From Lytechinus pictus (Eukaryota): a DNA stretch of 64,000 nucleotides. Location of the stretch: assembly GCF_037042905.1 (NCBI RefSeq), contig NC_087263.1, positions 10,850,001-10,914,000 of the forward strand, given 5' to 3'. A model generated the notes under the pieces. That model was not told the DNA's origin, searched no databases, and saw only the letters and a list, made by a program, of their open reading frames with translations. Both the position numbers and the translations under genes were made by a program. This document shows positions 13,901-63,305 of the stretch, piece after piece. The first letter of the stretch is position 1. Each line of letters opens with the position of its first letter.

Positions 13901-14951
13901 CCAAATCTAGATCTAAAGCTGGGTGGTTCTCAAGGCCAAATATTTACAAAAAAACTGTCTCCGATTTTTTTGTAATATTGATTGCTTCATATCTACTGTT
14001 TCATCCTTGCCTTGTGATCCACAGTGCATCTTGAATTCTTCTGATCAAAATTGAAAGCGATGCTTCACTAATGTAACCAAAATGGACGTATTCTTCCCTC
14101 AACCTAGCGATGATTACGCGGTAATGTAATTTTTGATGAAAATGTATTTACCACCGACGCTCTTCAGGAACAGAGTATAATGTAATAATGTACAGCTCCT
14201 AATTACGTCTGGAATTCTCCAGATTGGATCTGATTAGTAGTTCACTCTTCATTTATAGAGAGGAAGTGAGCAAAGTGAATTACAAACAGAGTAAAAGTAG
14301 TTATGAGACAATAAAAGCTCCAAAAACTTGTCATTTGTCTCCGTTCCTTCTTTCTTTCCTTTTCTATGTAGTTTTATGGCACGTCTTCTTGTTAACGGCT
14401 TATTCACATCCATCTGTGTGTGTGGGTGGGGGTGGGGTGGGGGTGGGGGGTTGTAGGTGTGTGCACATATATAGATTTATACTAACAAAATAATGTGTGT
14501 TCCTCGTAACGGAATACCTAGTATGTGTAAAGTTTACAACTTTCTTGAATGTTTTGAATACATTGTTTATTATTATTATTACTATTTATATTGTTATCAT
14601 TACTAATCTTATCATTTTATCATAAATAATTGCACACTACGTATTTCATCAAAATGAAAAAAAATACCAAAGCTCTTTTAATGACCCCCCCCCCTCCTCC
14701 CTTTTTTATTACGGATGGTTCCGTTTACACCATCACGCCTACAAGAACATATGGAGTACATATACCCTCCCCCCTCTAAAAAAACAACCCTGGATCGGAA
14801 CCCATTGTATAAAACCATAGTAGCGGGTAGCCGGGTTAGACATTTTAATATCCTGCTTTGCTAAAAGCTATGCACTATAAATCATTTTTCCTCCTTTTTA
14901 TTGCCACTTATTAAGATAAAAATGGAAAATTCACAGAGTATTCAATTACCC

Positions 14952-15153
14952 ATGGGCTATATATCTACCGCACACCATATTAATGATTGATACCCTTATC
15001 AAACATTACATAGATATCTCGAGCGTCACATCGCGTTATTTTTGCGTTAAAACTGCGAATCTGTACTTTTCGTAATACATAAAATATATTTTTGAGAGGA
15101 TTTGTAATATTTTCCGTTGTGTTCTTTATCTAAATGGTGTCAATTTAGGTGTA
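14952..15153. repeat. Left copy of a perfect 202-bp direct repeat (putative target-site duplication)
   Basis: Identical to 15952-16153 (ATGGGCTATATATC...CAATTTAGGTGTA). Confidence 0.95.
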
Positions 15154-15234
15154 TGTGTGTGTGGGGGTGTGTGTATGGTGGCAGGTCATTTGGAAGAGTG
15201 TCATATTGTTATGATTACATGTTTTTTTCGCAGT

Positions 15235-15951
15235 AGTTAAGGTGTGTGTGTATTTGACTTTTGTCAGACGTGTATCAATCAGATATGATTATTTACGTCA
15301 CCTTTAACGTCACCATCCGAAAGACGTGACCAGGGATCGAACTTCGAACCTCTGCATCAATTTGTAACTTCCCCACAGCTTGGATTACAGGCGCACGCCA
15401 CGCCAGTTAAGGTGTGTGTGTGTATTTGAGTTTTGTCAGACGTGTATCAATCAGATATGATTATTTACGTCTGGGACCGACCTTTAACGTCACCATCCGA
15501 AAGACGTGACCAGGGCTCGAACCTCGAACCTCTGCATCAATTTGTAACTTCCCCACAGCTTGGATTACAGGCGCACGCCACAACGCCCAGTTAAGGTGTG
15601 TGTGTGTGTATTTGAGTTTTGTCAGACGTGTATCAATCAGATATGATTATTTACGTCTGGGACCGACCTTTAACGTCACCATCCGAAAGACGTGACCAGG
15701 GCTCGAACCTCGAACCTCTGCATCAATTTGTAACTTCCCCACATAGCTTGGATTACAGGCGCACGCCACAACGCCCCGTTAAGGTGTGTATTTGAGTTTT
15801 GTCAGACGTGTATCAATCAGATATGATTATTTACGTCTGGGACCGACCTTTAACGTCACCATCCGAAAGACGTGACCAGGGCTCGAACCTCTGCATCAAT
15901 TTGTAACTTCCCCACAGCTTGGATTACAGGCGCACGCCACAACGCCCAGTT
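15235..15951 (-). mobile_element. Tandem array of 4 chimeric SINE units (7SL/Alu-like head, B box, Deu/Nin-like core, (CA)n tail)
   Basis: Units are 15235-15404, 15405-15588, 15589-15776 and 15777-15947. Minus-strand unit: ACTGGGCGTTGTGGCGTGCGCCTGTAATCCAAGCTGTGGGGAAGTT...GAGGTTCGAGCCC...GTCTTTCGGATGGTGACGTTAAAGGTCGGTCCCAGAC...AATACACACACAC. Confidence 0.8.
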
Positions 15952-16153
15952 ATGGGCTATATATCTACCGCACACCATATTAATGATTGATACCCTTATC
16001 AAACATTACATAGATATCTCGAGCGTCACATCGCGTTATTTTTGCGTTAAAACTGCGAATCTGTACTTTTCGTAATACATAAAATATATTTTTGAGAGGA
16101 TTTGTAATATTTTCCGTTGTGTTCTTTATCTAAATGGTGTCAATTTAGGTGTA
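15952..16153. repeat. Right copy of the 202-bp direct repeat
   Basis: Identical to 14952-15153. Confidence 0.95.
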
Positions 16154-30207: not shown

Positions 30208-30551
30208 CATAAAAATGGTTAGACAAAAATAATAAAAATTAACGCTCAAATGATTGGTCCTTTTAAAGGAAGACTATATCACAACAGTTAGTATAATGAT
30301 GGGCGAGAAGAAAAGTGAATTCTTTATTAGGTAGTACGCCCCTCTTTCCTCTTTTGACTCCATTCCAATTTTAAAGAGCTTCATAAAAATGGTTAGACAA
30401 AAATAATAAAAATTAACGTTTTAATGATTGGTCCTTTTAAAGGAAGACTATGTCACAACAGTTATTATAATGATGGGCGAGAAGAAAAGTGAATTCATTA
30501 TAAGGTAATACGCCCCTCTTTTCTCTTTTGACTCAATTCCAATTTTAAAGA
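30208..30551. repeat. Local tandem duplication, 174-bp period, 2 copies
   Basis: 30208-30381 and 30382-30551 both start CATAAAAATGGTTAGACAAAAA and differ by about ten substitutions. Confidence 0.9.
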
Positions 30552-32425: not shown

Positions 32426-33163
32426 TTTTTATACGCCCGTCCTAGACGGGACGTATTATGGTATCACGCTCGGTGTTCGTCTGCCTGACCGTTAACTTTT
32501 CCTTGTAAACGCGATAACTTCAGTGTAACTTAGTCTAGGCTCATATGATTTGGTATGTATGATACAAGCATAAATCCCAGGAAGCCTATTGATTTTTAGG
32601 TCAAAAGATCAAGGTCACAGTGAGATGTTTTTTAACCCTTTTGCAGTCCTTGTAAACGCGATGACTTCAACTTAACTCTACCCATGCTCATATAATTTGT
32701 TGTGTATAATTACTAGCAAGGATCCCAGGAAGCCTTTTGATTTTGGGGTCAAAAGATCAAAGGTCAAGGTCACAGTGACATGTTTTCATCTTACCCTTCT
32801 GCAGTCCTTGTAAACGCGATAACCTCAGTTTAACTTAACCTAGGCTCATATAATTTATTGTGTATGATACTAGCATCAATTCTAAGTAGCCTTTTGATTT
32901 TGAGGCCAAAAGGTCAAAGTTCAAGGTCACAGTGACATGATTTTATGTTACCCTTCTCAAGTCTTTGTAAACGCGATCACTTCAGATTTAATTAACCTAG
33001 GCTCATATATCTTGGTGTGTATGATACTAGCATGGATCCCAGGTATTCTATCGATTTGGAGATCAAAAGATCAAAGGTCAGGTCGCCACCTTCCACTTTA
33101 CTTGCTTGACCAATAACTCAATTTTCCACGTTACAGGCGGGTGTATTCTTGTGTTTTTTTTTT
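32426..33163 (+). mobile_element. Helentron-associated (HINE/DINE-1/pearl-like) element with internal ~157-bp tandem repeats
   Basis: 5' T-run plus TATACGCCCGT subTIR and hairpin (CCCGTCCTAGACGGG), GTCT/GCCT microsatellite remnant, ~3.8 repeats starting at 32501, 32648, 32806 and 32963, then 3' subTIR GGCGGGTGTAT and a T-run. Confidence 0.75.
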
Positions 33164-35480: not shown

Positions 35481-35552
35481 GTCTATGTGGTCTAGTGGTT
35501 AGGGCACCGGCGTTCAAAGCTGGGGACCCGGATTCGATTCCCGACAGAGACA
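35481..35552 (+). pseudogene. tRNA-like sequence (tRNA-Glu-type scaffold; pseudogene or SINE head)
   Basis: Cloverleaf: acceptor GTCTATG/CAGAGAC (6/7), D arm GTCT/GGGC, anticodon stem CCGGC/GCTGG, T loop TTCGATT with two T-stem mismatches. A T6 run follows. Confidence 0.65.
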
Positions 35553-61750: not shown

Positions 61751-61995
61751 TTGTACGACTTGATGCGAGAGGTGGCACAACTAAGTAGTCGCATTTAATC
61801 GACTGGAGGTCGTACGACACTTACACATGTGCTAGCGACCTATAGAGACCAGCCTTGCGACTGGGTGCGAAAATATATAGGCCATAATACTGTTGTAAGA
61901 CCGATCGCAACACGGCTTACAACATTGCACTACCGTTGCATTCGCATGTATGCGACCTTTCCTCGGTGTTATACAAAATAGGCGTTAAGAATAAA
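61751..61995 (+). repeat. Diverged copy of an internal segment (62255-62504) of the adjacent Harbinger element
   Basis: TTGTACGACTTG...GAGAGGTGGCACAACTAAG...TTCCTCGGTGT is present in both. Confidence 0.85.
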
Positions 61996-62997: not shown

Positions 62998-63305
62998 CCT
63001 AATCACATTCTTCTCAGAGGGATACTAGGGACCGATCCCTTCGGAGTACACTGTACAACCTTATGGAGTGCATTATAGCTCCTTCTGGAGTGAACGGTGA
63101 TCACTCACTCATCTAAGAGTGATACCAGGTACCCGAATCCCTTCAGAGTGAACTGTACATCCTTATGGAGTGCATTATAGCTCATTCTGGAGTTAACCGT
63201 GATCTCTCACTCATCTAAGAGTGATACCAGGTACCAATCCCTCCAGAGTGAACTGTCCATCCTTATGGAGTGCATTATAGCTCCTACTGGAGTGAACGGT
63301 GAATC
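62998..63305. repeat. ~101-bp tandem repeat x3 (GGAGTG/CACTC-rich, likely CACTA subterminal repeats)
   Basis: GGAGTGCATTATAGCTC at 63065, 63167 and 63267. A single related unit surrounds the MITE at 27957-28189. Confidence 0.8.

Follow-up and report, generated by a model that had tools for sequence, protein, structure and literature searches.

How did a long and exact repeat of host DNA come to lie on both sides of a SINE array? The question was raised by a window from Lytechinus pictus, i.e., the whole stretch of 64,000 nucleotides that was analysed. An earlier note on this DNA had explained the repeat as a 202-bp target site duplication (TSD) of an RTE-type enzyme. The reading preferred here, to which we give a probability of about 70%, is that four units of a young, 7SL-headed SINE form an array with an 11-bp TSD, and that the 202-bp repeat arose when synthesis primed by a microhomology brought a copy of nearby host DNA into the 5' junction.

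Structure of the duplicated locus

Positions 14952-15153 and 15952-16153 were identical at 202 of 202 sites. The repeat could be extended on neither side, enclosed 798 bp and was the longest among the exact repeat pairs of at least 30 bp listed for the window. The offset between its two copies was exactly 1000. By TRF, the array was recognized with a period of 180 and 4.0 copies, i.e., four head-to-tail units of 168-184 bp. With the 81-bp spacer next to it, the enclosed DNA had no TTTT on the minus strand. The duplication, the four units and the spacer had been described in the earlier note and were confirmed in the assembly. The features are collected in Table 1.

The units had been described as joined by CTTAACT. 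This joint was found between units 2 and 3, between units 3 and 4 and after unit 4, but CTTAACG was read between units 1 and 2. The ACT of the joint doubles as the first three bases of the SINE, and the joint motif extends to ACACCTTAACT.

In the 812-Mb genome, the 202-bp segment matched only its own two copies. A bindin match of 236.7 bits places the host among the echinoids. Because it is unique, the segment is host DNA. An LTR-like repeat that accompanies the SINE family, which the earlier note had named as the finding that would speak against it, was therefore ruled out. The 0 differences over 202 bp put the divergence of the two copies below about 1.5%, and the proposal of a very recent duplication of host DNA was borne out.

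Other repeats were also found in the window. Tandem repeats were placed at 30208-30551 (174 bp x2), 32500-33084 (157 bp x3.8) and 63012-63302 (102 bp x2.9), and a 60-bp exact pair at 61897/62407, 510 bp apart. ARAGORN predicted a tRNA-SeC (tca) at 35481-35552, which may be the head of a tRNA-type SINE.

Table 1. Features of the locus in the window of Lytechinus pictus
Feature	Position	Strand	Basis or remark
Proximal 202-bp copy	14952..15153	.	Putative native host DNA and duplication template; unique apart from its twin
81-bp spacer with CA/TG-rich run (15154-15178)	15154..15234	.	Probable native flank, not a transduced tail
3' copy of the probable true TSD ACACCTTAACT, in part shared with the (CA)n tail	15235..15245	-	Motif at all four unit ends
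SINE unit 4, 3'-most, with the most wear (head and body have short deletions)	15246..15407	-	89.6% to unit 1
SINE unit 3, allele with 7-bp duplicated B-box-like motif	15412..15591	-	Alignment to dispersed monomers
SINE unit 2, 2-bp insertion allele and 7-bp duplication allele	15596..15779	-	Alignment
SINE unit 1, 5'-most: 7SL head, B-box-like motif, body, 3' hairpin, short CA tail	15784..15950	-	Identical to the youngest dispersed copies
Head of unit 1 from the 5' Alu domain of 7SL (SRP RNA); every unit has one	15905..15950	-	Rfam Metazoa_SRP, E=5.6e-06
3' half (TAACT) of the putative split 5' TSD	15948..15952	-	Motif comparison
Putative 194-bp locally templated insertion, copy of 14953-15146	15953..16146	.	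Exact copy, between the two joint-motif halves
5' half (TACACCT) of the putative split 5' TSD, equal to the 7-bp microhomology with the template start	16147..16153	-	Motif comparison

The SINE family and its head

The element had been identified as a SINE, and this identification stands; its 7SL-derived head had been overlooked. Each of the four units gave an Rfam match to SRP RNA at its 5' end, with E values between 4e-06 and 0.28 and scores under the 70-bit cut-off. Among 25 scored candidates in the genome, seven were full 7SL genes. The head of the unit was 91% identical to one of them, the variant gene L040 (positions 2-46, 45 nt), and 30/31 identical to the six others. Its score against 7SL was 68, and the maximum in 2000 shuffles was 26. 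A closing helix ACT/AGT is common to the unit head and L040, whereas the six other 7SL genes have ACC/GGT. The closing pairs 1-3/43-45 of the head and helix 3 were kept. A tRNA head was ruled out, since ARAGORN predicted none at the locus and the head is 7SL.

The 3' end of 7SL was not detected in the unit, i.e., BLAST with word size 7 against the seven host 7SL genes matched only their first 31-46 nt. The element is SINE1-like, yet with the 5' part only it does not have the build of Alu, B1 or Ebu1, in which a central deletion joins the 5' and 3' parts. The head is followed by a B-box-like motif, the body, a 3' hairpin and a (CA)n tail. The sequence GTTCGA in the unit is what we take to be B-box-like, as part of a putative Pol III promoter from which the element would be transcribed. 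The body may resemble the V/Vhc domain. The fold of the whole unit was no better than that of shuffled sequences (z -0.06).

The family comprises about 1,600-1,850 copies, i.e., 1,609 candidates, dozens of them at 99-100%, with 1,846 genome matches to a 21-nt tail motif and 246 exact matches to a 33-nt head motif. When loci were picked by the tail motif, the 7SL head was found directly in 25 of 30, and another head in 0 of 30. Judged by these sequence comparisons, the SINE family is young and abundant, with a 5' head derived from host 7SL. The earlier view of the insert as a young SINE in multimeric form, ending in a (CA)n tail, was upheld.

Further arrangements around the 7SL genes and the SINE copies were observed. 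On contig C10, a SINE copy ends about 31 bp upstream of three 7SL genes (L034, L038 and L039, at about 1290-1470). The B-box-like sequence GGTTCGAGTCC lies about 20 bp past the terminator in five 7SL genes (L034 and L036-L039, just after 1800) and is absent from L040. The SINE copies of L098 and L224 are both broken by another repeat, which sits at nearly the same point in each.

Target site duplications across the family

The survey covered 139 non-redundant loci with at least 800 bp of flank on each side, and it was biased to young copies and to contigs C1-C6. In 102 full-length monomers, the best flanking match was at most 7 bp in 92 and 8-12 bp in 10. By another scoring of the surveyed loci, one monomer had a TSD of 15 bp, and a 13-bp TSD overlapping the AACT of the head was seen in the monomer L257. 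Flank matches of 26-37 bp at L014, L026, L031, L101, L127 and L139 do not abut the element, and hence they were not counted as long duplications. A long near-identical repeat that abuts the element was found at two of the 139 loci only, i.e., this locus and L111. None of the 138 other family loci had a true long TSD.

A long TSD is not a trait of this SINE family. The earlier note had taken the 202-bp repeat as a habit of RTE enzymes. This was not supported, since the TSDs were at most 12 bp in 102/102 monomers and the empty paralogues of L111 show that its long repeat is no TSD. The model for the claim was RTE-1 of C. elegans, which is said to have ~200-bp direct repeats around the retroelement; no paper on these repeats was found in the library searched. 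In contrast to that case, long repeats here are no family trait (one locus and L111 of 139) and probably not TSDs.

A parallel locus

The order of L111 is flank, 347-bp copy, truncated SINE, (CA)n, 120-bp spacer and copy, with an offset of 576 bp. The locus lies inside a host repeat, of which 39 other copies have the spacer and the segment contiguous at 97-99%. Nineteen L111 paralogues were fetched. Fifteen of them were empty, with spacer and segment contiguous. In the other four, SINE DNA shares the 3' junction of L111, but alleles and 5' junctions differ, so these are separate insertions. This weakens a reading in which the L111 copy was made after the insertion.

The two copies of L111 differ from each other by 0 substitutions and 1 indel, and from 17 paralogues by 5-12 substitutions. 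Since they are closer to each other than to the paralogues, the upstream copy was made locally. Since the empty paralogues keep the spacer, the long duplication of L111 is not a TSD, and such a layout does arise with a native spacer. At the junctions of L111, an 18-bp re-copy, short microhomologies and iterated switches were found.

In the host repeat that holds L111, L179, L181, L184 and L190, five apparently independent SINE insertions were seen at one 3' site. Their 5' junctions range from a small deletion over an inversion to a 350-bp templated copy.

Origin of the spacer

The 81-bp spacer had been taken for a 3'-transduced tail. This claim was not supported. A donor was found neither by BLAST nor by a pattern search with 3 mismatches in 29 nt, in which the sole match in the genome was the spacer itself; the assembly may lack the other haplotype. 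No other array with the same array-spacer joint was found genome-wide.

Read runs from other organisms, with a best word share of 0.24, were also searched; four of them were used, and none covered the array. In three of the four runs, the spacer was recovered end to end at about 85% in low-copy contigs. The 202-bp segment was contiguous with its left flank at about 88% in a related organism, where a record of run X1 covers 14691-15092. In run X4, the contig with the segment ends about 85 letters beyond 15092, and the contig with the spacer begins at the equivalent of 15151. These ends are close to the 30-letter overlap of adjoining contigs, as expected if segment and spacer are neighbours. The last 61 bp of the segment were unaligned in the relative, and the X1 contig stops 27 letters earlier. 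The segment was left uncovered in runs X6 and X10, which is no evidence either way. The extents of the contigs therefore give a hint that segment and spacer may be adjacent in the relative. From the old, low-copy matches we infer that the spacer is native flank and not a transduced tail.

The rival reading is that a pre-formed tetramer with 81 nt of donor flank was copied from one read-through transcript by an RTE-type enzyme, with a true 202-bp TSD. The lack of TTTT in the 798-nt insert and the 5' junction at the first base of the SINE agree with it. Its best point is the CA run of the spacer, which stops exactly at the segment boundary and abuts TACACC, as would be met at about 0.1% of positions at random; the ACAC microhomology explains this only partly. 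A hagfish SINE1 with a microsatellite tail is also described as RTE-mobilised (PMC7245038), although the TSDs of the hagfish RTE are given there as about 17 bp. However, this reading has no donor for the spacer or the array and no true long TSD at 138 other loci, and it leaves unexplained why joint-motif halves bracket the distal copy, as set out below. We regard it as quite unlikely.

No partner LINE of RTE type was found for it. The hairpin-variant search gave 95 overlapping matches, with a LINE ORF upstream at 0 of the 37 distinct sites listed, and the 20 fetched regions gave SINE copies only. L108 was considered as the partner and rejected, because it is a decayed LINE-like remnant with its own end and no shared tail. 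This remnant (L108, 1-1320) stands just upstream of a truncated SINE and has RNase H-like and CCHC-like motifs by eye. An RTE element may or may not be the partner.

Growth of the array

The units of the array are different alleles of the family. Unit 1 is identical to 21 of 104 dispersed monomers, with many copies at 99-100% genome-wide, and unit 3 is identical to 11 of the 104. The nearest dispersed copy of unit 2 is 1 event away and that of unit 4 is 3 events away. Units 1 and 3 are thus different dispersed alleles, 1 event apart, and units 1-3 differ by only 1-2 events. Mixed alleles were also found in other multimers of the family. Exact tail-to-head joints numbered 24 genome-wide, against 0.05 expected. 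About 10 of these are one dimer spread by a host repeat, i.e., one SINE dimer with the same flanks at about ten places (L042-L047, L196, L200, L203-L206 and L211-L214), and the shared flanks indicate that it was carried by the larger repeat.

These data are explained better by insertions that followed one another at a regenerated site, or by template jumping, than by plain unequal crossing-over. Expansion of the array in place, with slippage or conversion, may also have produced units only 1-2 events apart. An age gradient along the array was seen here and at L016, was inconsistent in other multimers, and is not claimed.

L016 (809-1822) holds six mixed-allele units tail to head without a spacer, with one 9-bp TSD and an old 3'-most unit (83.5%). 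A second host repeat (L005, L006, L021 and L210) is an insertion hot spot, and the joint of the dimer at L210 is native target sequence.

A probable split TSD and a proposed templated junction

The joint motif was found at all four unit ends (one T>G), and its leading copy is present only as two halves. The distal copy of the segment sits between these halves, i.e., TACACCT at 16147-16153 and TAACT at 15948-15952, with 194 bp between them. The motif ACACCTTAACT and the start of the segment, ACACCTAAATT, are alike at 9 of 11 positions. As background, the window has 300 ACAC sites on its minus strand, and 9/11 is attained at 10 of them, six of which come from this locus; elsewhere the count is 4/294. 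A target preference could cause such a match. This was ruled out, as CT after the tail occurs in 3/126 monomers and the flank logos have no strong consensus.

The true TSD is likely to be the 11-bp motif that joins the units. In the orientation of the element, the empty site would have been flank, TACACCTTAACT, spacer and 202-bp segment. A SINE would have inserted at the motif and duplicated it. Further copies of different family alleles would then have been added at the regenerated motif, giving (SINE-TSD)x4. The 5' junction would next have been open, most likely while the newest unit inserted, and the free upstream end TACACCT could have annealed to the similar sequence with which the 202-bp segment begins, some 90 bp past the array. 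From there, 194 bp would have been copied and then joined to the remaining TSD and the 5' end of the SINE.

The microhomology at the template start is 7 bp exact (9/11), and the template lies 90-280 bp beyond the array. At the 3' junction, the microhomology is 1 bp only. The copying enzyme may have been a reverse transcriptase or a host repair polymerase, for which a Pol theta-like enzyme is a candidate in templated copying. The reading of the TSD as split is post hoc and was not predicted. The case base for templated duplication is this locus and L111, and L111 is one in 138 and lies within a repeat.

Two further explanations bear on these junctions. The first is a two-step DNA rearrangement after the array was formed, i.e., a local tandem duplication with a deletion, or a later double-strand-break repair. 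It would give the same end product, and the native spacer, the absent donor and L111 all fit with it. However, its breakpoint must fall in the 11-bp 5' TSD without the loss of a base, and unit 1 and the duplication both stand at zero divergence, which makes it unlikely. The second is an artefact of assembly or polishing that wrote the segment twice. The round offset and the complete identity are what it would produce, in a structure known from the assembly. An assembler, however, is not expected to set the copy between joint-motif halves; L111 repeats this arrangement with an offset that is not round (576 bp), and the nearest N run is 3.6 kb from the locus. We consider an artefact very unlikely.

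Comparison with known systems

In the sources cited, 7SL-derived SINEs are listed for supraprimates, hagfish and shrew mole (PMC7245038, PMC13023118). An invertebrate one was not found in the papers searched, and an entry in Repbase or Dfam is possible. The closest likeness is the hagfish SINE1-1_EBu (Kojima 2020, PMC7245038), a young chimeric SINE that is described as headed by 7SL, as ending in a microsatellite and as having arisen independently of Alu and B1. According to the same source, it has 96 nt of the 7SL 5' end together with the 3' end, an (AAC)n tail, ~17-bp TSDs and an RTE partner. The sea-urchin SINE, in contrast, has about 46 nt of the 5' end only, a (CA)n tail, mostly no or short TSDs and an invertebrate host. 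Alu, B1, Tu and the shrew-mole Urop are likewise reported to be headed by the 5' Alu domain of 7SL RNA (PMC13023118), whereas the sea-urchin SINE has no central-deletion structure, no poly(A) tail and a non-7SL body. A 46-nt 5' Alu domain is reported as necessary for Alu retrotransposition (PMC11760393). The length of 7SL kept in the sea-urchin SINE equals this minimal domain.

Head-to-tail SINEs parted by the same TSD are described in the TSD1-(SINE-TSD1)n arrays of the blood clam (PMC11481361) and in the SINE-derived satellites of squamates (PMC10702118). The units of those arrays are reported as highly similar and truncated alike, and are ascribed to unequal recombination. The sea-urchin array differs from them in full-length units, different family alleles and a split leading TSD.

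The copying of nearby host DNA into a junction also has precedents. L1 insertions in human cells are reported to carry small duplications or stretches templated by genomic DNA close to where they integrated (PMC11702581), and extra nucleotides are described at the 5' ends of Alu and L1 (PMC2912911). The L1 cases come from human cells, whereas the two sea-urchin cases are inherited-looking alleles of an assembly, with a tail that is not of L1 type. Further literature is cited under PMC4758252 and PMC9659126. The templated junction insertion is a known kind of event, and the element is a variant of SINE1.

Meaning for the family

As far as the literature is covered by PMC13023118 (Feb 2026), no 7SL-derived SINE would have been described outside vertebrates before this one, unless Repbase or Dfam has an entry. 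The locus adds a junction anatomy and self-stacking arrays to what is known of such elements. It cautions against taking every long exact repeat around a retroelement for a TSD, or every spacer behind a SINE for a transduction. With the 46-nt head kept alone, the family offers a natural experiment on SRP9/14 hitch-hiking and on whether an enzyme other than that of L1 can serve it. As a tentative and rather speculative view, the family may be an independent invertebrate Alu-like SINE that arose from the 46-nt, putatively SRP9/14-binding tip of a variant 7SL gene. Its partner reverse transcriptase might then jump repeatedly between RNA templates and target DNA within insertions, which would produce mosaic arrays and copy hundreds of host bases at 5' junctions.
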